Shown here piece after piece: positions 1 to 13,322 of a stretch of DNA of 64,000 nt (positions within the stretch are counted from its first letter, which is position 1; each line of letters starts with the position of its first letter). The notes below the pieces were generated by a model. It saw only the letters and a list, made by a program, of their open reading frames with translations, was not told the origin of the DNA and searched no databases. The translations under genes and the position numbers were made by a program. This DNA is from Myxococcota bacterium (GTDB taxonomy: Bacteria; Myxococcota_A; UBA9160; UBA6930), in NCBI GenBank assembly GCA_965223415.1, contig OZ245002.1:2528001-2592000 (forward strand), written 5' to 3'.

Positions 1-1
1 C

Positions 2-235
2 CGGCAGCGGCTTCTCCAACGCCTATCCCGGATCGGGAGCGGTGAGGGGTTCAGGCTTCTTGTGGATCGCCGGGCGGCGGTCGGACTGGTCGAGTCATCC
101 GGGTGGAAAGTCGAGCAAGCGACGAGCATCAGAGAAGCGGCTCGGGTCCTCGTAGGACGCGACGCTGGCCTACCAATCGAATCTGTGAACGAACACAAGA
201 CCCTGGTTGCCGCCATTCGAGCCGGAGAGGCTTGA
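2..235 (+). CDS. 3' end of a gene running in from the window edge; possibly a SAM-dependent (LCM-like) methyltransferase C-terminus
   Basis: Open frame from position 2 to TGA at 233-235 (RLLQRLSRIGSGEGFRLLVDRRAAVGLVESSGWKVE...). It converges on the cassette array. The family guess is weak. Confidence 0.4.
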   Translation, partial: RQRLLQRLSRIGSGEGFRLLVDRRAAVGLVESSGWKVEQATSIREAARVLVGRDAGLPIESVNEHKTLVAAIRAGEA

Positions 236-248
236 TCGCCGAGGCCCT

Positions 249-359
249 GCCCAACGGGTAGGCGGCCCGAAGCTCGCTGAGCCACCTGAGTTGGACCCAG
301 TGTACCACGCCAAGAGCGGAAGCAGCGGTTCCCCGGTCAGGTCCAACCCCTTGTTAGGC
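249..359 (-). other. integron attC site 1 (L' box deleted)
   Basis: Minus strand reads GCCTAAC-AAGGGGTTGGACCTGAC...CCGCCTACCC-GTTGGGC, directly after the stop of 366..860. The interior aligns with 6544-6646 but lacks the TCAGCTGC (L') segment. Confidence 0.8.
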
Positions 360-365
360 AGCTGC

Positions 366-860
366 TCACTCGACTCGATAGATCAGCCAAGCCGAAAAGA
401 CGATGAAGCCGACGCCGAGGCATGTAAGGAGGCCCAGTTGGAAGATGCCTGGGTTGAGCGAGATCACGCTGAGCCCGGTGACCAAGAGAGCACCGATCTC
501 GACGAAGACTGCGAGTGGCACAACCGCATAGAGGTAGGGGTAGGGACCGCGGTCGCCGGTGCGCTCGACGCTTCGATTGCGTTTCAGTACGAAGACGGAG
601 AAGAGAAGCATCGCGAGGCCGAGCGCCCCGCTGCAGGCCACCAAGGTTGTTTCAACGGCGACGCCAGTCTCGACTAACGCCGAGGGAACGAGAGAGAACA
701 CCAACGCCATGCCACTCCAGCCGAGCATCTGGCGGAGAGCTAGACGGTCTCGTTCGCTGAATCCGTCTTGGGCACGGCGCTGAAGGGCTGCCGCAACTCC
801 GGAGAACCCAGCTAGGGCTACTGCAATCTCGGCTATGACCTCGTAGGACTGTAGTTCCAT
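366..860 (-). CDS. integron cassette gene, hypothetical multi-pass membrane protein
   Basis: 164 aa with about 5 hydrophobic segments (AEIAVALAGFSGV motif). It lies between an R' remnant (AGGCGGC, 872-878) and attC1. Confidence 0.75.
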   Translation of the reverse strand: MELQSYEVIAEIAVALAGFSGVAAALQRRAQDGFSERDRLALRQMLGWSGMALVFSLVPSALVETGVAVETTLVACSGALGLAMLLFSVFVLKRNRSVERTGDRGPYPYLYAVVPLAVFVEIGALLVTGLSVISLNPGIFQLGLLTCLGVGFIVFSAWLIYRVE

Positions 861-878
861 CGGCTCGCGCAGCCGCCT

Positions 879-1268
879 TGTGTGTTCCGCCTAGCGCCAG
901 ATTCGGGATAGGGTAGGTGTTTCGATCGGGGAGACCGTAGCTGCCTGAAGCCAGGTGAGCCTGAGAGTTGGATGAATCCCCCGTCCTTCTCGCCATGCCT
1001 TGAAGTATGCGAGGCCCGAGAGCCCGGATCTACAAAGTCGGTAGACGAGGATTCAGGGTCGGGCGACCGAGCGAGATTCTACACCGAGGAGGGAAACGAG
1101 CGGGCCGGGAATGGGGGGCTGGCCCAGGCCTTGGTTCGTCGGCGCAGCGCCGCGCGTGTGCGTCGAGGTGAAGGGCATCTACCACCTCGAGCCGTGTCTG
1201 TGGCCGGACGACGCAGCTCGGATCGAGGTGATGGTGGCGAACCCGCGAGCCACGAAGGATCTTGGCTC
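879..1268 (+). mobile_element. degenerate IS110 remnant (left end, bridge-RNA region, eroded recombinase fragment), related to the element at 5304-6543
   Basis: Same junction GCCGC-CT-TGT as 5297-5306. Shares blocks GCTGCCTGAAGCCAG, GAGGCCCGAGAGCC, TCTACAA and CAGGGTCGGG. Peptide remnant VEVKGIYHLE...VMVANPRA resembles VLESTGVYGLD...VMVANPRA. Confidence 0.85.
930..1075 (+). ncRNA. orphan bridge-RNA-like sequence of the IS110 remnant
   Basis: Homologous to 5360-5495. Guide-position segments are GCTGCCT (940-946), GAGAGTTGG (963-971), GAAGTATG (1002-1009) and TACAA (1031-1035). Confidence 0.6.
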
Positions 1269-1270
1269 GG

Positions 1271-1291
1271 GTCAGCTGCAGCCGGTTAGGC
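1271..1291 (-). other. attC site 2, R''/L'' half only
   Basis: Minus strand GCCTAAC-CGGCTGCAGCTGAC overlaps the TAA stop of the DUF2442 gene. The rest is replaced by the IS110 remnant. Confidence 0.75.
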
Positions 1292-1558
1292 GGCGCCCCT
1301 CTGCTTGGGCGGCGCGGGTGCGCCGCGGAGGAGGCCTTCCGCACTGAGGTCTTCATCCACATCCGGCCAGTGAATTCCGTGGCCACCACCACAGAGCTCC
1401 CACTTCTCGCGTTGCTCACGGGTGGCGTGCAGGAGCCGAGGGAACCAAGCGAGCGGAACAGAAATGGTGCGACCATCAGCAAGCGTCGCGTGAAGCGAGT
1501 CGTCATCGATTTCGACATCGATGATTCGCTCGCCCGCTCTAGGTTCCGAAGTAACCAT
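1286..1558 (-). CDS. DUF2442 family protein (toxin-antitoxin pair with DUF4160)
   Basis: LADGRTISVPLAWFPRLLHAT...GIHWPDVDEDLSAEGLL is the typical DUF2442 signature. It overlaps the upstream DUF4160 gene. Confidence 0.9.
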   Translation of the reverse strand: MVTSEPRAGERIIDVEIDDDSLHATLADGRTISVPLAWFPRLLHATREQREKWELCGGGHGIHWPDVDEDLSAEGLLRGAPAPPKQRGAA

Positions 1559-1775
1559 TCCAGGCCTCGAAGAGAGATCGTTCGTTGGATCGAATCAGCG
1601 CTTCGATCTGTCGCAGTTCCCGCGGGCCGAACCCGAGGTTTCGCGCCAACCCAACCGGAGCGAGCCAGAACTTCGCGGTTCGATCGTCGCGATCAACGTG
1701 AACGTGCGGAGGTTCGTTCGGCTCATGGCTGTAGAAGTATATCCGGTAGGGTCCGGACCGAAGAACCGTCGGCAT
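1539..1775 (-). CDS. DUF4160 family protein (toxin-antitoxin pair with DUF2442)
   Basis: MPTVLRSGPYRIYFYSHEPNEPPHVHV...AKFWL...AWNGYFG is the typical DUF4160 signature. Confidence 0.9.
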   Translation of the reverse strand: MPTVLRSGPYRIYFYSHEPNEPPHVHVDRDDRTAKFWLAPVGLARNLGFGPRELRQIEALIRSNERSLFEAWNGYFGT

Positions 1776-1781
1776 GGCTCA

Positions 1782-1820
1782 CCGCAAGGTATCGGATTCC
1801 CAAGCGAAATCGCCTTGCGG
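1782..1820. promoter_or_regulatory. inverted repeat upstream of the TA operon, putative autoregulatory operator
   Basis: CCGCAAGG (1782-1789) and CCTTGCGG (1813-1820), starting 6 bp from the DUF4160 start codon. Confidence 0.45.
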
Positions 1821-1855
1821 CACCACCTCGCAGTAGGAGGGGGCCGAGGCACTAG

Positions 1856-3146
1856 CAGGCTGCGGAAAAACCCCGTGCGACGGGTCGAATCGGTTGGTAC
1901 AGGCATACCGGGGGGATGGAGATGCGCGGAACCGATCGAACGCAGTCCACGATGTTCAGCTACGTGTCGCCGGAGGCGCGTGTCCCCGCCGATCATCCAC
2001 TGCGCGTGACGCGGGAGATGACGAATCGCGCCCTGGTCCGGCTGGACGGGAGGTTGCGGAAGCTGTACTCGCGGACGGGTCGGCCGTCGATTCCGCCCGA
2101 GCACCTGTTGCGGGCCCTGCTGCTGCAGGTGCTCTACTCGGTGCGAAGCGAGCGGATGCTGATGGAGCAGCTCGAGTACAACCTGCTGTTCCGCTGGTTC
2201 GTGGGGCTCGAGATGGACGACCGGGTCTGGGACGTGACGGTGTTCACGAAGAATCGGGATCGGTTGCTTCGGGGAGAGATCGCGGAGGGGTTCTTTCAGG
2301 CCGTGTTGGCGGAGGCCCGCGAGGAGGGGCTTCTGTCGGACGAGCACTTCACGGTGGACGGCACGCTGATCGAGGCATGGGCGGGGCAGAAGAGCTTTCG
2401 GCCGAAGGACGAGGACCGGGGCGGCCGCGGGGGTGGACGGAAGGCGACGGAGCGGGACTTCCACGGTGAGCGTAGGAAGAACGACACGCACGCCTCGACG
2501 ACGGACCCGGAGTCCCGGCTCTACCGCAAGGGGAAGGGGAAGGAAGCGAAGCTGTGCTTCATGGGCCACGTGGTGACGGAGAACCGGCATGGCCTGGTGG
2601 TGGCGGCCAAGACGACGCTGGCCACGGGCACGGCGGAGCGCGAGGCCTCGGTGGCGATGGTGAAGCGGGTGCCACGCGGACGGCGATCGACGTTGGGCGG
2701 AGACAAGGGCTACGACACGGTGTCGCATGTCGAAGAGCTTCGAGAGCTGGGCGTGACCCCGCACGTCGCGCAGAACGACAAGGGCCGCCGCAGCGCGATC
2801 GATGATCGAACGACGACGCACGTGGGCTACGAGATCAGCCAGCGCAAACGCAAGGCGATCGAGCAGGTCTTCGGCTGGGGGAAGACGGTAGGCCCGATTC
2901 GCAAGGTGAAGCATCGCGGCAAGGAGCGGGTGGGCTGGATGTTCACGTTCACCCAGGCGGCCTACAACCTTGTGAGGATGAGGAACCTGCTATGCCCCAC
3001 GTAGCTTGTCGGGTCGAGTGGAGGGCCCCGTTGGCAGCGAGCCGGGCGTCAACCGGCGGCAAGGCCTCGATTCCGCGCTCCTTTCCTAGCCAAAGCGCCT
3101 CCAAGGCACCGTTCTCTGCGTACCATCGGCGTTCTTCCGCAGCCTG
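1856..3146 (+). mobile_element. IS5-family insertion sequence
   Basis: Terminal IRs CAGGCTGCGGAAAAAC / GTTCTTCCGCAGCCTG. CTAG target duplication at 1852-1855 and 3147-3150. Confidence 0.9.
1916..3004 (+). CDS. IS5-family DDE transposase
   Basis: MFSYVSPEARVPADHPLR, GRPSIPPE, FTVDGTLIEAWA, TTDPESRL, GGDKGYD and RKAIEQVFGWGK motifs. Confidence 0.92.
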   Translation: MEMRGTDRTQSTMFSYVSPEARVPADHPLRVTREMTNRALVRLDGRLRKLYSRTGRPSIPPEHLLRALLLQVLYSVRSERMLMEQLEYNLLFRWFVGLEMDDRVWDVTVFTKNRDRLLRGEIAEGFFQAVLAEAREEGLLSDEHFTVDGTLIEAWAGQKSFRPKDEDRGGRGGGRKATERDFHGERRKNDTHASTTDPESRLYRKGKGKEAKLCFMGHVVTENRHGLVVAAKTTLATGTAEREASVAMVKRVPRGRRSTLGGDKGYDTVSHVEELRELGVTPHVAQNDKGRRSAIDDRTTTHVGYEISQRKRKAIEQVFGWGKTVGPIRKVKHRGKERVGWMFTFTQAAYNLVRMRNLLCPT

Positions 3147-3350
3147 CTAGGACCCGGGGCCAAAGACGGAGAGATACGAGTCTAGGGCTGCGCTGAGCCA
3201 GCTGTCGTCGAGCCGCCGCAACTCGTCGATTCGCTCCTCGGGTTGGAGAATGTCGAGAAGGAGCTTCCCGAAGGGCAATTCGGGCTTGGCATCCCAGGCA
3301 CTGCCCAGCGCCTCGAGGATCTCCGCTCGCTCCTCTTCGCGGTTGGACAC
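3147..3350 (-). CDS. small hypothetical cassette protein
   Basis: 67 aa (ILEALGSAWDAKPELPFGKLL) with GTG start, downstream of attC3. Its TAG stop is part of the IS5 CTAG target. Confidence 0.55.
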   Translation of the reverse strand: MSNREEERAEILEALGSAWDAKPELPFGKLLLDILQPEERIDELRRLDDSWLSAALDSYLSVFGPGS

Positions 3351-3420
3351 CCCGCCAGCCTACCCCTAGAAGGTTCGCTCGCTGGCGCCCGATCGCGTCC
3401 AACCTGTCCGCGTTCGCCAA

Positions 3421-3521
3421 GCCGCCTTGTACCTCTGATCCAGCCGGCCAAGGAACAACCCCAGGCTACCATGGCCGTTTGAAGGGTGCTTGGAGCCGTC
3501 AGCTGCAGCCGCTTGTTAGGC
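3421..3521 (-). other. attC site 3 (R' disrupted by an 11-bp IS110 left-end scar)
   Basis: Minus strand GCCTAAC-AAGCGGCTGCAGCTGAC at 3498-3521. At the far end, GCCGC-CT-TGTACCTCTGA (3421-3438) is identical to 5297-5314. Confidence 0.8.
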
Positions 3522-3528
3522 GCCGCGC

Positions 3529-4786
3529 GGTACGGTCCGGCCACATCCTTTACAGGAGTCCAGGGACATCGTTTACACCCGGGGGATGCCCTGGATGGAA
3601 ACGGATGCAAGGAAGCAGCGGCAGGCGTTCGTTCGCGACTACGAGAGCGGTCAGTGGTCGATGAGCGAGCTGTGTCGGCGGTATCGTGTCTCCCGGCCCA
3701 CAGGCTACAAGTGGCTCGGGCGCTTCGAGTCGGAGGGGGAGGCCGGCCTGGAGGAGAGGTCCCGTGCGCCGGCTCGCTGCCCGCACAGGACGCCAGCGAG
3801 CGTGGAGCGCAAGATCCTGGCCCTTCGCGCCGAGTACGGCTGGGGTGCGAAGAAGATCTTGCAGGTGCTCGAGCGCCGGTACCCGAAGATGCAGAGGCCC
3901 GCGCGAAGCACGGTGAACGCGATCCTCGATCGCCACGGCAAGCTGCGCAAGAACCGACGTCGGAAGAAGTGGTCGCATCCCGGCGCTGCGTCGCTGTCGA
4001 CCGACCACCCGAACCAGGTGTGGCCCGCGGACTTCAAGGGCCAATTCAAGATGCGCAACGGTCGCTACTGCTACCCGCTGACCGTGACCGACCACTGCAG
4101 CCGCAAGCTCCTGATGTGCCGCGGGCTGCACTCGATTCGCACCGAGGGCGTGAAGCCGCTGTTTCGGGAGCTCTTTCGCGAGGTCGGACTTCCCGAGGCG
4201 ATTCGCACCGACAACGGTGCCCCCTTCGCATCGACCGGGATCCACGGCCTGTGCGAACTCAACGTGTGGTGGATGAAGCTCGGCATCGTGCACCAGCGCA
4301 TCCGTCCTTCGAGCCCCCAACAGAACGGGCAGCACGAGAGGATGCACAAGGACCTCAAACGCGAGGCGACCCGCCCGCCTGGCGCGAACCTCAACGTCCA
4401 GCAGCGGATGCTCGAGGCCTTTCGTCGACGCTACAACGAGGAGCGGCCGCACGAAGCACTCGGTGGAGCGTTTCCCGAGGAGCGCTACGAGCCCTCGCCG
4501 CGGCCGTACCCCAGTCGCCTCTCGCCGCCGGAGTACCCTGCGCAGATGGAAGTGCGCCGCGTGAGCCGGGCCGGGACGTTTCGGCTGAAGGCGAAGCAGC
4601 CCTTCCTGAGCAACGCACTGGCCGATGAGTACATCGGACTTGAAGAGATCGGCGACGGCATCTGGAGCATCGTCTACTACGAGACGATCCTGGGCCGCAT
4701 CGACGAGCGCAGCAGGAAGATCACCGGAGTCTGAGAGGTGTAAACGATCTACCTGGACTTGTGTAAAGGATCAGCCGGACCGGTCA
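3529..4786 (+). mobile_element. IS481-family insertion sequence
   Basis: Imperfect IRs of about 50 bp: CGGTCCGG..ATCCTTTACA..AGTCCAGG..ATCGTTTACACC and its complement at about 4737-4786. No clear TSD. Confidence 0.85.
3586..4734 (+). CDS. IS481-family transposase (HTH + rve integrase core)
   Basis: MPWMETD..SMSELCRRYRVSRPTGYKW; W.ADFKG, LTVTDHCSR, IRTDNGAPF, PQQNGQHERMH and YNEERPHEAL motifs. Confidence 0.93.
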   Translation: MPWMETDARKQRQAFVRDYESGQWSMSELCRRYRVSRPTGYKWLGRFESEGEAGLEERSRAPARCPHRTPASVERKILALRAEYGWGAKKILQVLERRYPKMQRPARSTVNAILDRHGKLRKNRRRKKWSHPGAASLSTDHPNQVWPADFKGQFKMRNGRYCYPLTVTDHCSRKLLMCRGLHSIRTEGVKPLFRELFREVGLPEAIRTDNGAPFASTGIHGLCELNVWWMKLGIVHQRIRPSSPQQNGQHERMHKDLKREATRPPGANLNVQQRMLEAFRRRYNEERPHEALGGAFPEERYEPSPRPYPSRLSPPEYPAQMEVRRVSRAGTFRLKAKQPFLSNALADEYIGLEEIGDGIWSIVYYETILGRIDERSRKITGV

Positions 4787-4790
4787 GGCC

Positions 4791-5249
4791 CTAGAACCTG
4801 GAGCTGAGCCAGGTCGCATTCCTGGCCAACAGAAAACCCACGAGAACCCTTGCGAGAGGAGACACCAGGTACCCGATGAACGTCGTCGAACTCATCCTCT
4901 CAGGAGCTGACATGGCCATTGAAAATAGAACTACGAACGCAGAGAGAAGCGAAGCAGAGCCTGCAGCCATGAAGAAGATCCCGAGCAGAACGACGCCGAG
5001 GGAGAGCCACTGCGCCCCCGGGGCAACGCTCGGCGGGTTGTGCTCTGGCATGCTGAATGCGACGTAACGCGAGAGCACCAGGAGGACGACTCCTGGAATC
5101 CAGTTGCCAGCTAGCGTGGGCCAGGAGTCCAACAGCATCGACGAGAGGGGCCTCACAAGATCCTCGGACTGGCCCATGACCAAGTAGTAACTGGAAGCCT
5201 CGTGGGCCCATTCGGCGACACCGGACGCAAGAAAGAACAGGCCGAGCAA
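4791..5249 (-). CDS. integron cassette gene, hypothetical membrane protein (start uncertain; frame open to about 5285)
   Basis: Four hydrophobic segments, lower GC, and located between the attC4 R' site and attC3. Confidence 0.65.
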   Translation of the reverse strand: MLGLFFLASGVAEWAHEASSYYLVMGQSEDLVRPLSSMLLDSWPTLAGNWIPGVVLLVLSRYVAFSMPEHNPPSVAPGAQWLSLGVVLLGIFFMAAGSASLLSAFVVLFSMAMSAPERMSSTTFIGYLVSPLARVLVGFLLARNATWLSSRF

Positions 5250-5344
5250 CGCCGTCCCAGTCCGCGCAACTTCGGTCAGCTTGAACCCCCCTTCGCGCCG
5301 CCTTGTACCTCTGAGCAGGCTCTTCGGGCCTGAGTGAGACTCCG

Positions 5345-5500
5345 AGATGGGTTCCCGGGAAAGGCCGTCGCTGCCTGAAGCCAGAGAGCTTGTCCGTTAG
5401 ATGGGCCTCCCGCCCTCGTCACCCATGCCGTGGAGTATCCGAGGCCCGAGAGCCTGCGTCTACAAGGTCCGTAGGTGAATGTGCAGGGTCGGGAGACCCG
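5345..5500 (+). ncRNA. bridge RNA of IS110-A (boundaries approximate)
   Basis: Target loop AGGCC[GTCGCTGCCTG]AAGC-CAGAGA-GCTT[GTCCGTTAGATG]GGCCT. Donor loop has GGAGTATC (5432-5439) and TACAAG (5461-5466) around the AGGC-CCGAGA-GCCT hairpin. Confidence 0.85.
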
Positions 5501-5530
5501 GGTCCCAGCTTATCACGGGGAGGAGAGACC

Positions 5531-6526
5531 TTGAAGAAGTGTCATTACGTGGGCGTGGACGTCGGGGCGAAGGAGCTCGTCGTCGCCATCGACCGGAACG
5601 GAACTCGCGAGGGCGGGCTGGTCTTTGCGAACGATCCCAAGGGCCACCAGAGGCTGATTCGGTGGGCCACGAAGGGGAATGCGACGGCGCGCGTCGTCCT
5701 GGAATCGACCGGGGTGTACGGCCTCGACCTCGCGTTCGCGCTTCACCGTGCGAAGGCGTCCCAGGTGATGGTGGCGAACCCGCGGGCCATTGCCGCGTTC
5801 GCCAAGGCATCGCTTCAACGCTCCAAGACGGATGCGCTCGATGCGGAAACGATTCTCGAGTTCGGAATGCGCATGGAGTTTTCCGCCTGGACTCCGCCGG
5901 ACCCCCGAATTCTGGAGGTACGGGCCCTCTCCCGCCGCGTGGAGGCTCTGAGCAAGACCGTGACGCAGGAGAAGAACCGGCTCCATGCCAACGACCAGAG
6001 CGAGGAGCTCAGTGAGTTCGTGAAGCAAGACATCCGCGAACTGATCGAGCTCCTGGAGGGGCGAATCGATCGGCTGCGCAAGCAAGCGTTGAAGGTGATC
6101 GAGCAGAGCCCCGAGCTCGCCAGAGACTTCGGCCACATCACATCGATCAAGGGTATCGCCGACGCAGCCGGCATCCAGTTGCTCGCCGAGCTAGGCACCT
6201 TGCCCAAGGACATGACGACCCGGCAATGGGTCGCGCATGCGGGCCTCGACCCCCGACAGTTTCAATCGGGCACCTCTGTGCACAAGCCAGCTCGCATCAG
6301 CAAGACCGGCAACGCCCACCTTCGCCGCGCACTCTTTCTTCCTGCGATGGTCGCTGCACGCTGGGAACCGAACGTGAAGGCCTTCTACGAGAAGCTGCTC
6401 TCCAAGGGCAAAACCAAGATGCAAGCACTCGTCGCCGTCATGCGGAAGCTGCTCCACGCCATCTACGGCATGCTCCGCCACGACCAGGACTTCCTTGGCG
6501 AGAAATTCTTCGCCACGAAGGGTTGA
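5531..6526 (+). CDS. IS110-family DEDD recombinase/transposase
   Basis: TTG start after AGGAGAG. Motifs VGVDVGAK, VLESTGVY, KTDALDA, HAGLDPRQFQSGTS, SKTGNAHLRRALF and VAVMRKLL. Confidence 0.95.
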   Translation: MKKCHYVGVDVGAKELVVAIDRNGTREGGLVFANDPKGHQRLIRWATKGNATARVVLESTGVYGLDLAFALHRAKASQVMVANPRAIAAFAKASLQRSKTDALDAETILEFGMRMEFSAWTPPDPRILEVRALSRRVEALSKTVTQEKNRLHANDQSEELSEFVKQDIRELIELLEGRIDRLRKQALKVIEQSPELARDFGHITSIKGIADAAGIQLLAELGTLPKDMTTRQWVAHAGLDPRQFQSGTSVHKPARISKTGNAHLRRALFLPAMVAARWEPNVKAFYEKLLSKGKTKMQALVAVMRKLLHAIYGMLRHDQDFLGEKFFATKG

Positions 6527-6543
6527 CGACGAAGGGAGTATCT

Positions 6544-6646
6544 AACGGACAGGCGGCTCAGCTGCTGGGCAGGCCCCGAAGCTCACTGAGGCGCCTGGGT
6601 GGAACCCAAGAGTACCACGCCCCAGTTGGAACGCGCGGTTGCCCGG
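6544..6646 (-). other. attC site 4, central segment with L' box (between IS110-A and IS1111-B)
   Basis: Minus strand GCAGCTGAGCCGCCTGTCCGTT, followed by AG-GC once IS110-A is removed. The interior is homologous to attC1 (CCGAAGCTC.CTGAG...GTACCACGCC...GCGGTT). Confidence 0.85.
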
Positions 6647-6724
6647 AGGGTATAGGGAGGTCAGCTCCTTGGAGAACAGCCACCTTGGCTGTGTTCCAAC
6701 AAACACTCCCCAAGGAGACTGACC

Positions 6725-7774
6725 ATGACGACAGAGTACTTCGCTGGGATCGACTTGCATCGCACCGTGATCCAGATCTGCGTGCTGGATGCGCGGGGTG
6801 AGAAGATCGCCGAGGAGAGGATCCGCTCCGAGAGCCTTGAACAGGGCCTCGGGGTCGTGGAGCGGCTGAAGTTCTTCGGACCCCATTGCCGCGTAGCCGT
6901 CGAGGCGTTGGGCCTCAACCGGTGGTTCGTCAACGCCTGCCGAGAGGCGCAGCTCGACGTTCTGGTCTGTGATCCGCGCAAGCTCGACCTGAAGAAGCTC
7001 GGCAAGAAGACGGACCGGCGAGATGCAGCCGAGATTGCACGCCGGCTCTGGCTCGGTGATCTGGATCGGGTGGCAACGACCTACTACCCGAGCGACGAGG
7101 AGTACGGGAGGAGGAAGCTCCTTCGGGTCCGCCACCGCCTCGTCCAGATGCGCCAACAGGCCGTGAACCAGCTCCGGGGCTTCCTGAACGCCTACCGGAT
7201 TCCCGCTCCCACGAGCGCGCTCTATACCAAGCCGAGCCGGGAGAAGCTCCGCACCGTCACCCTGCCGACCCTGGAGATGCAGACCGCCTTCAAGGCCCTG
7301 CTCCAGGTGCTCGATAGCCTGCAGGGCCAGGTGCTGGCTCTCGATCGGGAGATCCGACGGATCGGGCGAGAGGATCCCGACGTCCAGGCCCTCGAGCAGG
7401 AGCTCCCGAGCATCGGGACGCAATCGGCTGCCACGCTGCTCGCCGAGATCGGCGACCCGCACCGATTCCGAGGCCCCCGTGCGGTCTCGGCCTTCGCCGG
7501 CTTCACCCCCAAGGTGAACCAGTCAGCCGACCACGCCCACCACGGCCGCATGACCCGCCAAGGCCAGGCCGAGCTCCGCTGGATCGTCAGCCAATGGGCG
7601 GTTCGCCTGATGAAGGACGACCCGTTGGTTCGTGCCTGGGCGAAGACGATGCGGACCCGCGTCCACAAGAACAAGGTCCGCATGGCCTTGGCTCGCAGAC
7701 TCCTCGTCAGCGTCTGGGTCACGCTCACCCGCGGCGAGGCCTTCGATCTCCGGAGGTGCCTTGGCATGGCGTAG
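6725..7774 (+). CDS. IS110/IS1111-family recombinase
   Basis: AGIDLH, VAVEA, KKTDRRDA, AFAGFTPKVNQSA and MALARRL motifs. Confidence 0.93.
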   Translation: MTTEYFAGIDLHRTVIQICVLDARGEKIAEERIRSESLEQGLGVVERLKFFGPHCRVAVEALGLNRWFVNACREAQLDVLVCDPRKLDLKKLGKKTDRRDAAEIARRLWLGDLDRVATTYYPSDEEYGRRKLLRVRHRLVQMRQQAVNQLRGFLNAYRIPAPTSALYTKPSREKLRTVTLPTLEMQTAFKALLQVLDSLQGQVLALDREIRRIGREDPDVQALEQELPSIGTQSAATLLAEIGDPHRFRGPRAVSAFAGFTPKVNQSADHAHHGRMTRQGQAELRWIVSQWAVRLMKDDPLVRAWAKTMRTRVHKNKVRMALARRLLVSVWVTLTRGEAFDLRRCLGMA

Positions 7775-7802
7775 CCCCGCTCCCCCAGGACCCCTTCTCG
7801 CT

Positions 7803-7968
7803 TGTGTTCCAACGAAGACGGTAGGCGGGCAGCTGACTGCGGCCCATGAGCCCTTGGCCCCGATTCACCACCGTCGCCCCGAACCCCTCATTGAGCCCAC
7901 GAGGCCGACAACGCGTTTGGACTGAACCCGAACCCGCAGGGACGCAAGCCGATTCCGTTGGAGGACAC
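7803..7968 (+). ncRNA. seek/bridge RNA of IS1111-B
   Basis: Closing stem GTGTTCCAACG / CGTTGGAGGACAC. Inner stem GACGGT/ACCGTC encloses GCAGCTGAC (7829-7837), the exact reverse complement of the right flank GTCAGCTGC (8022-8030). Confidence 0.7.
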
Positions 7969-8021
7969 CACCAAGACCCACACGTGCTTCGCGATCATTG
8001 GAGTTGACACTCCCTAAACGG

Positions 8022-8037
8022 GTCAGCTGCAGCCGCT
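8022..8037 (-). other. attC site 4, L'' segment (between IS1111-B and IS110-C)
   Basis: GTCAGCTGCAGCCGCT is identical to attC3 3498-3513, where it continues TGTTAGGC. Confidence 0.85.
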
Positions 8038-8064
8038 CCTATGATGCTAGGCATGGTTAGATGA

Positions 8065-8250
8065 AGCGGCCGGTGAGCAGAGGCACTGCCCACCGGCCTT
8101 TCTCAACCGGAGCGGAAGACCGGTAGCCGTCGGGTCCCTCGTGAGACCGTTAACCAGCTTGGGTCTCCGCTCCACAGCCGCAGCGAAGCTCGAACGATCG
8201 CCTGGGCCTCTTGCGAGAGCCCGTAACCAGGAGCCCGAGTTCGTTGCACC
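8065..8250 (+). ncRNA. bridge RNA of IS110-C
   Basis: 5' hairpin GGCCGGTG..CACCGGCC. Target loop closed by GGAGCGGA/TCCGCTCC holds GTAGCCG (8123-8129) and TAACCAGC (8151-8158). Donor loop holds AGGAG (8229-8233), complementary to the left end CT-CCT. Confidence 0.7.
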
Positions 8251-8262
8251 TTGGAGTCTACC

Positions 8263-8805
8263 ATGGGGATGAACGTCGGGATCGACGTCTCGAAACACTC
8301 GCTTGATTGGACCTCAGGAAGCAAGGGGAAGCTTCAGCACACCCGCAACGAGCCGCGGGCCATCGCCCACCTCCTGCGTCGGATGGCCGAGCTCGACCCC
8401 GAGCGCATCGTCGTCGAGTCGACCGGGGGCTACGAGCGCCCGGTGGTCCAGAAGCTCGCCGAGGCGGGACTCCCGGTCGTCGTCGTGAACCCGGTTCGCG
8501 TTCGGCGCTTCGCCGAAGGCCTGGGGCTGCTGGCGAAGACGGACGCGGCAGATGCGCAGGTGCTCGCACTCTACGGCGAGAAGGCCGGGCCGCCGATCCG
8601 GCCGATTCCGATGGGGAGAAGCCGTCTGCTGGCCGATCTCATCGCACGGCGCCGCCAGCTCGTCTCGATCCTGGTGGCCGAGAAGGGTCGGCGGGAAGCG
8701 GCGCCTCGAGCTGCGCAGGCCTCGATCACGAGGATTCTCCGTGCTCTCGAGCGCGAGGTCGACGGCATCGACCAGCGCATCCAGAAGGCGATCGAAGACG
8801 ACCTC
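8263..8805 (+). pseudogene. IS110 recombinase, N-terminal DEDD half only
   Basis: VGIDVSK, VVESTGGYE and AKTDAADA motifs. The frame runs into the IS21 end at 8806, and the C-terminal domain is not found after 11107. Confidence 0.88.
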
Positions 8806-8940
8806 TGTCGAGGGACGTCATCTCTTGCGCGCTAAGAGGACGGCTAGTTTTGCGCACCCCCCTGGGTTGATGTTCGGTTCTTCCTTCTTCTCTTCCGCTC
8901 TCCGAAGGAGAGCACGGCCGTCAGGCCGCCCTCTGGGGCC

Positions 8941-9741
8941 TCAACGCTGGGCGCTTTGCCCCGCGGCCTGCTCGAGCTCGCGGAGCCGGTAGCTCCGCCC
9001 CGAGATGTTGAGCACCTGGCTGTGGTGGAGGAGGCGATCGAGGATGGCGGTGGCCAGCACCTCGTCGCCCGCCAGCACCTCGGGCCAGTCGGCGATGCCC
9101 TTGTTCGTGGTGATCAGGATCGAGCCCCTCCCATAGCGGTAGGAGACGAGCCGGAAGAAGAGGCTCGCCTCCTGGCGCGTCATGGGCTCGAAGCCGACCT
9201 CGTCGATGACGAGGAGCGCCACGTTCATGTGCTTGCGCCGCCGCAGCCGTTGCGGGCTGATCTCGGCGTCGCGCTTGAGGGCCGCCAGCAGGTCCTCGAG
9301 GCGATGGAAGGCCACGGAGAAGCCGTTCTCCACGGCCCGCACCCCCAGGGCCACCGCCAGGTGGGTCTTGCCCACTCCCGGCGGACCCTGGATCAGCAGA
9401 CTCTCCTTGGCCCGGATCCACGCGCAGGTGCCCAGCGTCTCGATCCGGCTCCGCTCCACACTCGGCTGGAAGGCGAAGTCGAAGTTGCCGAGGGTCTGCC
9501 CCGTGGGAAGGCCCGAGAGACGGAGCGAGGTCTTCATCCTCCGCTCCTCGCGGTGCTGCAGCTCGGCCTCGAGCAGCAGGTCGAGGAAGCGGTGGGGCAC
9601 GAGGTCGTCCTTGGTCGCTCGGGCCAGCTCCTCGCCGATGTGCTCGGCCGCGTGATGGAGGCCGAGGCGCACGAGCCGCTCGCGGGTCGGGTCGAGATCC
9701 ACCTTGCCGCCCTTCTTGGGCACCGGGTTTCCCGCCGTCAT
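8941..9741 (-). CDS. istB: IS21 helper AAA+ ATPase
   Basis: FDFAFQP, GPPGVGKTHLA, LLVIDEVG, ITTNK and AILDRLLHH motifs. Confidence 0.95.
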   Translation of the reverse strand: MTAGNPVPKKGGKVDLDPTRERLVRLGLHHAAEHIGEELARATKDDLVPHRFLDLLLEAELQHREERRMKTSLRLSGLPTGQTLGNFDFAFQPSVERSRIETLGTCAWIRAKESLLIQGPPGVGKTHLAVALGVRAVENGFSVAFHRLEDLLAALKRDAEISPQRLRRRKHMNVALLVIDEVGFEPMTRQEASLFFRLVSYRYGRGSILITTNKGIADWPEVLAGDEVLATAILDRLLHHSQVLNISGRSYRLRELEQAAGQSAQR

Positions 9742-11024
9742 CGCGCCACCTCCGCCAGATCGGCATAGAGGTCGATCGGCCGCTGCTCCGGCTCCATCGC
9801 CCACAGCTCCTGGAGGCGTCGACCCATGCGCCCGAGCGGTACGGGCGCCTCCACCCCCTCCGTGCTCGGCCCCTCGTAGTGGCTCGGGTCCAGCAGCAGG
9901 CGGCTTCGCGTGTGGCGCGGGTGCGCGGCCACCACCGAGCCCTCGGCCCAGACCTGCACCTGCCGGGCGCAGCCGCGCACCTCGACGCTCTGCTCGACGA
10001 AGCGGAAGGGGACGCTGTAGGTACGCCCCTCGAAGCGCACCGTGGCGTCGCGCCCGACACGTCGCATCACGGCCAGGTCGAAGGGCTCGGGAAGCCGCTC
10101 GGGCAGGGCCCCGAGATGGGGCTTCTCCGCCTCCCACGCCTGGAAGACCGTCGTGCCCGTCGCCGGGCACTGCCGCCGGTGGCTCGAGCGCGCCACCTGG
10201 CCGTCCGTCCACGCTTGCAGCGACTCCAGGCTCTCGTGCTCCCGCCGACGCGGATCGAAGCCCCGCCGGTGCCCCAGGATCCGACGCTCCACCTTCCCCT
10301 TCTCCTGCGGCTGGCGGGGACGGGTGGCGTCCACGTGGAAGCGAAGGGCCCCGGCATAGCTCGCGTAAGCCGGGTTCACCGTCCCCCATGGCCCCGCCCC
10401 CTTCGCCACCGCTGTCTTCACGTTGTCGACCCGCAGCACCGCCGGCACCCCGCCCAGCCGCTCGAAGGCCCGGTTGTGCACGTCCAGCCACGCCAGCGTG
10501 TCCGCCCGCTCCGACCACACCACCGCTTCTCGCCGCGAGTGCGAGAGCACCAGGTGGAAGGCATGCAGGTCCACCTCCTGGCCCCCGATCCGCACGCCCG
10601 GAAACTCGCCCCAGTCCACCTGACCCTGCGCCCCGGGCGGTGTCTCCACCCGACGCCGGCTCCGCACCTTCGGTCTCGGGAACCGGGCCCGCACGTACCG
10701 CTGCACGCTCTTGGAGCTCCCCGTGTACCCGTGCTCCTCCACCAGGAACTCGTGAAGCTCCTGCAGGTTCACGCCACGGCCTCCCGAGCTCGCCTCCAGC
10801 CACTCCGCGATCACCTCGTGGACCGCCTCGGCCAGGAAGGGCTTCCCGCTCCGGCCGTCTCGCGCCCCCTCCGCCAGCCGCTTCAGCCGGTAGCGCACCG
10901 CGCTCTCCCGGATCCCCAGCTGGCGGGCGATCTCCCGGTTCGAGCACCCCCGCTCGTGCAGCACTTCGATCGTCATCACTTCCTCCTGCCTCAGTCGCCG
11001 CTGCCCCACGCCCCCCTCCCTCAC
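9738..11024 (-). CDS. istA: IS21 transposase
   Basis: N-terminal HTH, ETPPGAQGQVDWG, LSHSRR, VDNVKTAV, KGKVER and YSVP motifs. Overlaps istB by 4 bp. Confidence 0.95.
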   Translation of the reverse strand: MREGGVGQRRLRQEEVMTIEVLHERGCSNREIARQLGIRESAVRYRLKRLAEGARDGRSGKPFLAEAVHEVIAEWLEASSGGRGVNLQELHEFLVEEHGYTGSSKSVQRYVRARFPRPKVRSRRRVETPPGAQGQVDWGEFPGVRIGGQEVDLHAFHLVLSHSRREAVVWSERADTLAWLDVHNRAFERLGGVPAVLRVDNVKTAVAKGAGPWGTVNPAYASYAGALRFHVDATRPRQPQEKGKVERRILGHRRGFDPRRREHESLESLQAWTDGQVARSSHRRQCPATGTTVFQAWEAEKPHLGALPERLPEPFDLAVMRRVGRDATVRFEGRTYSVPFRFVEQSVEVRGCARQVQVWAEGSVVAAHPRHTRSRLLLDPSHYEGPSTEGVEAPVPLGRMGRRLQELWAMEPEQRPIDLYADLAEVAR

Positions 11025-11324
11025 GGGGAACGTGCCGCGCAGCGGCTCAACAGGAGGTGCGCAAATCTACGTGTCCTCTTAGCCCTCGAATATCACGTCC
11101 TGCGACAGTGCCGTCTGGTGCCGCCGCAGTTGTGCGTTCGAGTCCCCACCGCGTTTGCGAAATTGAGAACTGACCCTCAGGCTCGCGGAAGGAGGGTCAC
11201 TCGTAGCTTCCCGCCTAACCGCGAATGCCTGATCCAATAGGCTGAAAGGAATTCGAACCCCCGACCCTTGTATCTACTCCACTCACCCGGATCTGGTTCA
11301 ATAGGGTCAGAACGGGTTTCGGGG

Positions 11325-11465
11325 GAGGGTCGCCGTCCCGACCCAGAGGCATGGTCCTCGTACCTGAGAGAGGCGCCCTCGCCCGATCTCGCAAGCTCGA
11401 ACGGTATCCCGAGGCAGCGGTCTGCCGCTCGTCCTCGCATGCACAAGGAAGAGCACCGAGGTCGG
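11325..11465 (+). ncRNA. bridge RNA of IS110-D
   Basis: Target loop GAGGGTCGCC[GTCCCGACCCA]GAGG-CATGGT-CCTC[GTACCTGAGAGA]GGCGCCCTC. Donor guides ACGGTATC (11401-11408) and ACAAG (11443-11447). Confidence 0.85.
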
Positions 11466-11507
11466 CACCGAGGCTCCCGACGCTCCCGTTCGAGGAGGAA
11501 GAAGGGG

Positions 11508-12683
11508 ATGCGCTTCGTTGGGATCGACATCGCCTCGGAAACGCACGTCGTCGCGATGGTGGGAGAAGACGGGGGCGTGCTGCTGAAGCCGGTCTCGTTC
11601 CGGGAGGAGGCGGCTGGCTACGCACTGCTGTGGGAGAAGCTGGGAGGCCCCGAGGACACGCTCGTAACGCTCGAGGCAACGGGGCACTACTGGAAGAACC
11701 TGTTCGCGGCGCTTGCGGCGAGGGGTTTTGCCGTGGCGTTGATCAACCCGCTGCGCAGTCGCCGGTTCGCACAAGAAGACTTGGAGCGGACGAAGACCGA
11801 CGCAATCGATGCGCTCGGCCTGGCTCGCTTCGGAGCACAGAAGCGTCCGAGGGTGACTCGCCTTCCGGACGCGGCGACAGAAGAGCTTCGTGAGCTCGTC
11901 CGGCTCCGCGATCGTCTGGTTCAGGACTTCGGGGACTGCACCCGGCGGCTCCACCGCATGGTCGATCTGGGCTTCCCAGAGCTCAAACGGTACGTGAAGC
12001 ACCTCGATAGCCAGCTGTCGACGGGGCTGCTGCGGGAGTACCCCACGGCAAGAGCCTTCCAGGAAGCCTCTGTGGGGCGCGTGGCAAAGCTTCGCTACGA
12101 CGGTCGTCATCGTGTAGGCGATGCGCTCGCGAAGCAGCTCGTCGAGGCTGCGCAGAACTCGGTGGGCGCCCATCATGGCCCGGCCTACCAGGTGCAGGTG
12201 CGTTACCTGTGCGAAGACATGGACGTCTTGCGCAAGAGACTCGGCGACATCGACCGCGACATCGCGGATCAGCTATCCGCGCACGAGGTCGGAAGCTTGC
12301 TGACGACGATCGATGGGATCGGGCCGACGACGGCAGCACGGCTCATCGCGGAGCTCGGTGACCCGGCCGACTTCGCCACGGCCGCAGCCCTCGCCGCCTA
12401 CGTGGGCGTCGTTCCAGGCCTAAAGCAGTCGGGCAAGCGCCAAGGCAAACGCGGGAACCTCTCGCCAATCGGTCACGCGCGGCTACGTCGCGCACTGTGG
12501 ATGCCGACGTTGGTCGCCGTTCGGAAGAACCCCTGGGTGCGGGCCCACTACGAGCGGCTGCGCGACAACGGCAAGCCCGCAAAGGTCGCGCTGATCGCCT
12601 CGACGAGGAAGCTGCTCATCGCGGTTCACGTCGTGGCGAGGACCCGCAAGCCCTTCGTTCCACAGCTAGAGACCAACCCATGA
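11508..12683 (+). CDS. IS110-family recombinase
   Basis: VGIDIAS, LEATGHYW, KTDAIDA, YVGVVPGLKQSG and GHARLRRALW motifs. Confidence 0.95.
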   Translation: MRFVGIDIASETHVVAMVGEDGGVLLKPVSFREEAAGYALLWEKLGGPEDTLVTLEATGHYWKNLFAALAARGFAVALINPLRSRRFAQEDLERTKTDAIDALGLARFGAQKRPRVTRLPDAATEELRELVRLRDRLVQDFGDCTRRLHRMVDLGFPELKRYVKHLDSQLSTGLLREYPTARAFQEASVGRVAKLRYDGRHRVGDALAKQLVEAAQNSVGAHHGPAYQVQVRYLCEDMDVLRKRLGDIDRDIADQLSAHEVGSLLTTIDGIGPTTAARLIAELGDPADFATAAALAAYVGVVPGLKQSGKRQGKRGNLSPIGHARLRRALWMPTLVAVRKNPWVRAHYERLRDNGKPAKVALIASTRKLLIAVHVVARTRKPFVPQLETNP

Positions 12684-12773
12684 ACCGAGAAAACCGGGCC
12701 CAGCCCCTTGCTGAAGATCACGGTATCTCAGGTTCGAAGCCTGGGGGTCGGGGGCTCTCCCACCCCACGCGTC

Positions 12774-13322
12774 CTAGTCGAGGAATGCCCACAAGAGCCG
12801 TCGGCTCCTCGCGTCCAGGCTCCCCGGGCTCGACACCAGGTAGAGATCCCCGGCCACGTCCTTGATCAGGAGGCCGCCGCCGGGCATCTCGCGGGGCCAC
12901 TCGTCCCGGAGGGTCTGGAAGCTGCGCTCGCCCTGGGCCGTGCGCACGCGGAAGGTGCGGATCTCGATCTCCTCGTCCACGTCGAGCACCGCCTGGATCT
13001 CGAGCACGAAGCCCGCCTCGAGCAAGGCCGTGCCCAGCGCCCGCTGGGCCGTGTAGGGGAGGTCGGTGAGGTCGCGCACGAGCGCCACCTCCTCCTCGTC
13101 CCGGTCACGGAGCGAGACGTAGCGCGACGGCTTCGACCAGGGGAAGCAGCGCACGGGCCGCACCGAGCAGGTGCGGTCGGCAGTGCGCGCCCAGAGCTGG
13201 CCGTCGGAGCCACGCCACAGCTCGAGGCCCGCCATCGGGCGCCGCGGAGCCTGGTGCGCCACGGCGCGTCCGCGCCGGCTGGGTGCGAGGGTCTTCGGCT
13301 CTCGTCTCTGCGGGTCGTTCAT
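12774..13322 (-). CDS. DUF1854 domain protein
   Basis: VRPVRCFPWS.P..YVSL..EEVALV and GLLIKDVAGDLY..SLDARSRRLL motifs; in its usual position downstream of this ABC transporter family. Confidence 0.8.
   Translation of the reverse strand: MNDPQRREPKTLAPSRRGRAVAHQAPRRPMAGLELWRGSDGQLWARTADRTCSVRPVRCFPWSKPSRYVSLRDRDEEEVALVRDLTDLPYTAQRALGTALLEAGFVLEIQAVLDVDEEIEIRTFRVRTAQGERSFQTLRDEWPREMPGGGLLIKDVAGDLYLVSSPGSLDARSRRLLWAFLD

Follow-up and report, generated by a model that had tools for sequence, protein, structure and literature searches.

The 64,000-nucleotide window analyzed here (positions 2528001-2592000 of a myxococcotal genome that consists of one contig of 5,833,097 bp with 71% G+C) contains an array of integron attC sites, three of which carry the same left junction of an insertion sequence (IS) of the IS110 type, denoted element A. 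Element A is very probably a recombinase element guided by a bridge RNA, with the target loop of this RNA programmed for the R' box of attC, a reading based on sequence comparison in which the anatomy of A, its genomic copies, the guide matches, the covariation of guides and flanks and the RNA structure are shown. Under this scenario, the three neighboring attC sites would have been hit independently: the third one by A itself, recently and with the element still intact, the second one by either A or a closely related element, now reduced to 11 bp, and the first one by a diverged member of the same clade that is now a 374-bp wreck. At the stub and at the remnant, later deletion would have taken the IS body along with the R' arm of the attC, fusing adjacent cassettes. 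The coordinates of all features are collected in Table 1.

The junction sequence GCCGCCTTGT (GCCGCCT|TGT) occurs in the window exactly three times, at 872, 3421 and 5297, always on the plus strand, as claimed in an earlier note on this DNA; 0.22 occurrences would be expected, and three were not reached in any of 100 shuffles. The left flanks of the junctions are three different, unrelated cassette starts that have only GCCGCCT in common, so that the junctions did not arise by duplication of a single segment. All three junctions are located at the R' end of an attC and at the same nucleotide, in agreement with the proposal that one R' position was struck in three successive sites. The 11-bp scar at the second junction, TGTACCTCTGA, is indeed identical to the left end of A in 11 of 11 positions, with the identity stopping at base 12. 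When up to one mismatch is allowed, this 11-mer matches the window only at 3428-3438 and 5304-5314, in both cases exactly, and its seven occurrences genome-wide (5.83 Mb) are the six left ends of A and the stub at 3428. A diverged remnant at the first junction, which had been assigned to 879-1268, is present as well, with its end shifted to near 1252: positions 932-1068 align with A 5362-5498 at 76% identity (138 bp), positions 1226-1252 align with A 5763-5789 at 96% identity (27 bp), and the last ~40 bp (1253-1291) belong to the far arm of the attC. The remnant is equally distant from A and from every relative compared (75-79% identity), and therefore represents an old member of the clade rather than an old copy of A.

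The genome contains six copies of A that are 99.8-100% identical and have CT at both junctions in all six cases. The two recombinase domains (E-values of 3.8e-26 and 1.5e-20) score 92.2 bits for PF01548 and 73.8 bits for PF02371, both above the respective cut-offs. In A, the gene is preceded by 227 nt and followed by 15 nt of non-coding sequence; this combination of a long left non-coding end, a short right end, a core at both junctions and no target duplication is that of the IS110 group. The anatomy of the IS1111 type was not found in A, in which the guides precede the gene (5368-5466) and the stop codon is only 15 nt from the right end; given the upstream position of the guide, A is not a member of the IS1111-attC group although it works alike. 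In all likelihood, A is an active IS110-group element the leader of which would be transcribed into a bridge (seek) RNA; transcription, binding of this RNA by the recombinase and a circular intermediate are all presumed. Across the joined ends of A (6519-6541/5304-5312), TTGAC overlies the stop codon and TACCTC (TATATC in many relatives) follows 17 nt on, an arrangement that would yield a junction promoter in the circular form only, as described for the family. Contigs of public runs X1, X2, X5 and X6 over 4800-6700 contain several known flanks at the IS ends and no joints, assembled contigs being uninformative on circles or empty sites.

The four guide segments lie in the leader in the order left target, right target, left donor, right donor. 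The predicted target loop would pair through TCGCUGCCU with the bottom strand to the left of the insertion point and through GUCCGUUAG with the top strand to the right of it, the two guides together specifying GCGCCGC-CT-AACGGAC, and the guides of the second loop would address the joined ends of A, GGAGTAT-CT-TGTA. The address so specified would correspond to the R' box and the adjoining spacer of an attC family of ~130 nt (in the cassette orientation, GTCCGTTAG|GCGGC), with insertion into attC predicted at one nucleotide and in one orientation, antisense to the cassettes, 4 nt past the integrase crossover G|TT. In accord with the IS110-group architecture, in which the leader RNA has two internal loops with sides that match target or donor on opposite strands, RNAalifold applied to 35 leaders predicts two internal loops, each with a closing stem and a 4-bp hairpin cap and with the four guides located within the loops. 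In this structure, 98.9% of the cells pair compared with 25-55% when the partners are slid, and 8 of the 29 pairs show compensatory changes compared with 0-2 for slid partners. The site-specific targeting put forward in the earlier note is thus supported, and its mechanism appears to reside in the guides of A's own leader. The leaders of the clade also share a conserved GATACTCC (A3 columns ~38-45; GAGACTCC in A at 5338-5345, ~35 nt inside the left end) which is the reverse complement of the right end of A and of the left donor guide GGAGTATC and might represent either a sub-terminal inverted repeat or a helix masking the donor guide.

Homologs of the recombinase number in the thousands at 55-87% identity, mostly on short metagenome contigs. 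For comparison with A, 3 loci from genomes and 80 from metagenomes were collected, the leaders of which align well. Guides and flanks covary among these relatives: the left guide matches the left flank in 6.92 of 9 positions on average compared with 5.81 after permutation (maximum 6.25; n=61), and the right guide matches the right flank in 7.07 positions compared with 6.11 (maximum 6.54; n=56), with none of the 2000 permutations reaching the observed value in either case. Some subclades are reprogrammed in the guide and the flank alike. In loci L012 and L013, both read CTATCCGAC, and in L045 both contain AACATTCT; CCTGCCT|ATCCGA in L012-L021 and AACATTCT|GGACT in L044 and L045 replace the attC address. 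The right flank starts with CTAAC in 41 of 56 relatives, and the attC address is, as far as the flanks tell, kept by most of the clade. A match to the attC profile directly behind the IS, from model position 1-2, was found in 28 of the 83 related loci. Two weak tests of the relatives' flanks, for a folded hairpin and for inverted arms, were positive in 9 of the 56 loci that have 120 nt or more of flank and above all shuffles in 17 of 50, respectively.

The attC family, which was defined by iterative nhmmer search, has eight members in the genome, the first of these 1.1 kb from the integron integrase gene (intI, 2062393-2063328; 449.7 bits for TIGR02249, with a cut-off of 265). In the integron proper, intI is on the minus strand whereas cassette 1 and the top strand of attC are on the plus strand; this attC reads R''(GCCCAAC)...R'(GTTAG|), with the right end of A directly after GTTAG. 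From this orientation, it follows that the end struck by A is R' and that the cut, GTTAG|GC, falls 4 nt past the G|TT crossover. The cassette open reading frames (ORFs) of the window, a DUF4160/DUF2442 pair and small membrane proteins, are all on the minus strand, so that the geometry there is the same as in the integron proper. The attC cluster in the window has no integrase of its own; intI, the only gene of this kind in the genome, is 465 kb away. Both the boxes and the context are those of genuine attC sites, namely, R'' (RYYYAAC) and R' (GTTRRRY) ending an imperfect palindrome, and an integrase with co-oriented cassettes, the first cassette and attC being directly beside intI. The complete sites 2773683-2773809 and 2064415-2064548 fold into long hairpins (z of -1.8 and of -3.6 to -3.9, respectively), with GCCTAAC paired with GTTAGGC, an open spacer and single bulged bases. 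Less elaborate genome searches failed to recover the family: nhmmer with a single attC seed found only the seed itself, the requirement for R-box pairs closed in the minimum-energy fold yielded zero and then four candidates and missed the true sites, and a fuzzy search for the two arm motifs produced 337 matches, that is, noise in a genome with 71% G+C.

The R' position is intact in six attC members, three of which hold an intact A (attC1, window 6542 and genome 2778103) and three of which do not (genome 2075314, genome 2773801 and window 249-359); two further sites (window 872 and 3421) bear the remnant and the stub. In every attC insertion, A is antisense to the cassettes. Nor is the left-end motif equally common away from attC sites, as four of its seven occurrences are within the few attCs of the 5.8-Mb genome. 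The attC targeting asserted in the earlier note is therefore upheld as an enormous enrichment (the family accounts for ~1 kb in 5.8 Mb), but it is not exclusive: three of the six intact copies occupy look-alikes outside attC, adjoining a response-regulator gene, a PP2C phosphatase gene and panC, which indicates that recognition is by sequence, a stretch of 14-16 nt, and not of attC as such. At the copy 2067315, the end of attC1 (...GGTCCGTTAG) is followed by a DDE-type IS flanked by GTTAG on both sides and then by the right end of A, an order from which the original right flank of this copy can be reconstructed as CTAACGGAC as well. This DDE-type IS (inverted repeats CCCTGATCCGGCATTG; L093 2544-4080, genome ~2064543-2066079) sits exactly between the R' box of attC1 and the right end of A, and the GTTAG on both sides marks it either as a third kind of element at this hotspot or as flanked by a 5-bp target duplication.

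The colonization events of different ages followed by deletion that were suggested in the earlier note are supported as well, with the refinement that the deletions extend past the IS into the R' arm and accordingly are not excisions. At 3421, GCCGCCT is followed by the 11 bp of A, then by TCCAG, and then by an attC stretch that matches the empty site 2773676-2773760 without a difference over 85 bp, relative to which the second attC lacks ~49 bp of the R' arm and the entire IS body. The stub ends with CTGA, and the attC family has GCTGA exactly at the start of the retained part; CTGA, common to the left end of the IS and to the attC, suggests a microhomology-mediated deletion. The remnant retains ~374 bp and is joined near 1252 to what is left of the attC, the final ~40 bp with GTTAGGC at 1285-1291. 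In neither case does the deletion endpoint coincide with an IS end, which makes recombinase-mediated excision less likely; the mechanism of deletion is, in any case, inferred. Positions 3444-3528 and the empty attC at genome 2773676-2773760, 245 kb away, are 100% identical over 85 bp in different surroundings, which suggests recent exchange or conversion between cassette arrays. At genome 2075182-2075217 (L093 ~13183-13218), an otherwise A-free attC contains a 35-bp left-end stub of another IS110-superfamily element, B, so that left-end stubs recur in a second lineage.

Several observations do not fit easily with guide-directed targeting and subsequent loss. The specificity of A is loose: the empty R' arms at genome 2075314 and 2773801 differ from the 16-nt target by only one or two mismatches, the copies 1177807 and 3944636 are inserted at sites that match the left guide poorly, and the left guide itself differs from the left target in attC at two of the nine positions. 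In the remnant, the position of the right guide is occupied by GAGAGTTGG, which would specify CCAACTCTC and not CTAAC, so that this guide is either decayed or programmed for another box. With regard to the RNA, the compensatory changes are mostly inherited by one subclade of seven sequences and hence represent few independent events, the single-sequence leader folds no better than shuffled sequences (z of -0.92 and -0.39), as does the remnant, and no match was obtained in the window with Rfam at gathering thresholds. The TCCAG between the stub and the retained attC is unexplained by a simple microhomology deletion and is not a piece of A, in which no match longer than 5 nt was detected.

Recognition of the folded attC structure is ascribed to the integron integrase and to group IIC-attC introns, and because the attCs of this genome fold into strong hairpins and most of the relatives of A are also found in attC, the recombinase might likewise recognize the hairpin as a structure, with the leader matches being incidental. 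There is very little to recommend this possibility given that the three intact copies in non-attC DNA have only the short target sequence in common with the attC insertions, that the guides covary with the flanks even in relatives retargeted to sequences other than CTAAC, and that A tells the near-palindromic ends of attC apart by the spacer GGAC, as encoded in the right guide. It is also highly unlikely, if slightly less so, that the three junctions are copies of a single IS-bearing junction spread by duplication, gene conversion or integrase shuffling of an IS-plus-cassette unit. An IS located downstream of the G|TT crossover is formally part of the next cassette and could move along with it, and the 85 bp shared by the second attC and the site 245 kb away demonstrate recent exchange between arrays; such copying is, however, at odds with the three different cassettes to the left of the junctions, with the identity of only ~76% between the remnant and A, and with the identity of 83% between the attC that follows A in the window and its counterpart at genome 2778 kb.

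The origin of the stub and the remnant can be contested separately from the targeting. Both could stem from aberrant recombinase-mediated excision or IS-to-site recombination instead of host-mediated deletion, and the recurrence of left-end stubs, as in the case of B, could indicate a systematic mechanism. This alternative appears improbable, although not negligible, because neither endpoint is at an IS end or at a CT core beside a donor-like sequence, the right target, which precise or nearly precise excision would retain, is gone in both cases, and the stub junction is at the shared CTGA, as is typical of slippage or illegitimate recombination. That 3428-3438 is not IS DNA at all, but a chance or attC-derived resemblance, can be practically dismissed: the last four bases, CTGA, are indeed present at the aligned position of the attC family, which leaves only seven strictly IS-specific bases, but the match of 11 out of 11 starts exactly at the insertion nucleotide, the 11-mer is elsewhere confined to the left ends of A, and the empty sister attC reads AACGGACC... 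at the position of the stub.

Table 1. Element A, its predicted guides, the occupied and empty attC sites, neighboring elements and genomic copies of A (window positions, except for the last six rows, which give genome positions)
Feature	Position	Strand	Details
Left target and core GCCGC-CT, first attC	872..878	+	Outer half of R' box; adjoins start of cassette ORF 860..366(-)
Decayed IS110 remnant of the A clade	879..1252	+	Left end TGTGTG; degenerate bridge-RNA region ~920-1094; recombinase-gene fragments to ~1252
Surviving far (R''-side) attC arm	1253..1291	-	...GTCAGCTGCAGCCGGTTAGGC; attC middle and R' arm deleted
Left target and core GCCGC-CT, second attC	3421..3427	+	From sequence
Stub of 11 bp, TGTACCTCTGA, equal to A left end	3428..3438	+	Exact match
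Remainder of second attC (middle and R''-side arm)	3439..3521	-	GTTAGGC at 3515-3521; ~49 bp of R' arm gone
Left target and core GCCGC-CT, third attC	5297..5303	+	From sequence
Intact IS110-type element A	5304..6541	+	1238 bp plus one CT core; CT at both junctions; no terminal inverted repeats
Predicted bridge RNA	5363..5494	+	Donor-binding domain 5408-5494
Left target guide TCGCTGCCT (predicted)	5368..5376	+	7/9 to top strand of left target GCGCCGCCT; one difference is U opposite G
Right target guide GTCCGTTAG (predicted)	5392..5400	+	Exact reverse complement of core and right target CTAACGGAC, 9/9
Left donor guide GGAGTATC (predicted)	5432..5439	+	Equals A right end GGAGTAT and first core base, 8/8
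Right donor guide TACAAG (predicted)	5461..5466	+	Reverse complement of core and left end CT-TGTA, 6/6
Recombinase gene of A, 331 aa	5531..6526	+	TTG start behind GGAGG; DEDD_Tnp_IS110 and Transposase_20
Core CT, R' arm and middle of third attC (CTAACGGACAGGCGGCTCAGCTGC...)	6542..6645	-	Then broken by a second, unrelated IS110-superfamily element
Neighboring unoccupied attC, same family	249..359	-	R'-side box is GCCCAAC on + strand, no CT core; nhmmer match 261-359
Element B	~6647-8022		Gene 6725-7774; IS1111-like, long non-coding region downstream; between ...CCCGG and GTCAGCTG
Element C	from 8039		Gene from 8251; between GCAGCCGCT and R'' box; cut by IS21-like element 8806-11107
A copy (window)	2533304		gcgccgC-CT-AACGGACA; attC
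A copy	2779341		gcgccgC-CT-AACGGACT; attC
A copy	2067315		gagccgC-CT-AAC...; attC1 of integron
A copy	4167564		ccgccgC-CT-AACGGTAG; outside attC
A copy	1177807		ggctcaC-CT-AACGGGAG; outside attC
A copy	3944636		gctgCT-CT-AAGGGGTT; outside attC

The third attC (5297-8805) houses three distantly related elements of the IS110 superfamily, A, B and C, at three positions, with the proteins ~26% identical. The A-attC-B arrangement is found again 245 kb away, at genome 2777467-2779350 (L094), with an attC that is only 83% identical and is again cut by the IS21-like element, which looks like an independent double colonization of a second site. More generally, the part of the window that harbors these attCs (1-12750) is an IS graveyard that contains, in addition to A, B and C, an IS5-like element (1847-3152, at least nine copies in the genome), an IS481-like element (3529-4787), the IS21-like element (8806-11107, ~20 copies) and a further repeat (11247-12746).

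Neither attC targeting by ISs nor guide RNAs are new: attC targeting by IS1111-type relatives and bridge or seek RNAs are both already published. The IS1111-attC group (ISKpn4, ISPst6, ISPa25) was reportedly described by Post and Hall in 2009 and by Tetu and Holmes in 2008. Like A, for which site- and orientation-specific attC insertion was found here, these ISs, which encode a DEDD recombinase, are described as occupying a fixed position and orientation at one end of attC (PMC11187229), and a seekRNA from the element's own non-coding region is reported there for ISKpn4 and ISPst6 (Siddiquee et al. 2024, PMC11187229). According to the same source, the IS1111 type has a long non-coding region and the RNA downstream of the gene, along with sub-terminal inverted repeats (PMC11187229); A departs from this type in its upstream leader of 227 nt, its tail of 15 nt and its guide order, which is that of the IS110 type, with the bottom-strand match 5' of the top-strand match. 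In the window, it is B, not A, that is IS1111-like, and B occupies another position in the same attC. The closest functional parallel in terms of architecture is IS621, presented as an IS110-group element that is directed by a bridge RNA to REP elements of E. coli (Durrant et al. 2024, PMC11208160). A resembles IS621, as described in that source, in the domain pair, the CT core, the leader-encoded RNA with the target loop preceding the donor loop, the 9-nt left guide pairing with the bottom strand and the right guide with the top strand, and the core within the guides (PMC11208160), but differs in the attC R' box target, the 9-nt right guide and the distantly related protein, A being known here from sequence alone. 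ISEc21 is characterized as an IS110-type seekRNA element with the guide in the upstream non-coding region and with a conserved stretch within IS3-family transposase genes as its target (PMC11187229); the A clade shares the upstream guide-encoding region and shows natural reprogramming among relatives, whereas the target is attC and not IS3-family transposase genes. Another class of mobile elements described as specialized on integron attCs, the group IIC-attC introns (PMC3001079), comprises retroelements with a ribozyme and a reverse transcriptase and an unrelated mechanism.

What appears to be new is a clade of attC specialists of the IS110 type, with the guide encoded in the leader, in which an anatomy typical of the IS110 group would be combined with attC targeting. 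No report of an attC specialist with a guide in its leader was found in the literature searched, which did not extend to most subscription journals, ISfinder records and the supplements of two 2024 papers. It is conceivable, albeit doubtful, that A and its relatives (recombinase identity of 55-87%; sediment, soil and marine metagenomes contain hundreds of copies) would form a dedicated clade of attC parasites within the IS110 group, a second independent invention of attC targeting beside IS1111-attC, with the attC that was hit staying usable by the integrase and the IS hitch-hiking on integron recombination. The invariant right end of A remakes a consensus R' box (GTTAG and AT give GTTAGAT, which fits GTTRRRY), and the IS is located beyond the crossover, so that the site might remain a substrate for the integrase, which might then move the IS together with the following cassette. 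In this case, the IS would make up the leading portion of the downstream cassette as it moves, an RNA-guided hitch-hiker on integron recombination.

The locus offers a compact natural replicate of RNA-guided target choice, with one guide and one 16-nt address, three adjacent sites struck at an identical base, three off-target insertions elsewhere in the genome, and two empty sites. For the engineering of bridge recombinases, the clade would be a source of dozens of natural guide-target pairs, some of them naturally reprogrammed. With respect to integron biology, attCs would be parasitized by IS110-group elements with leader-encoded bridge RNAs besides the IS1111-attC group, through a clade that is widespread in environmental DNA, and the insertions and the ensuing deletions, which strip R' arms and fuse cassettes, would help to freeze and erode chromosomal arrays.

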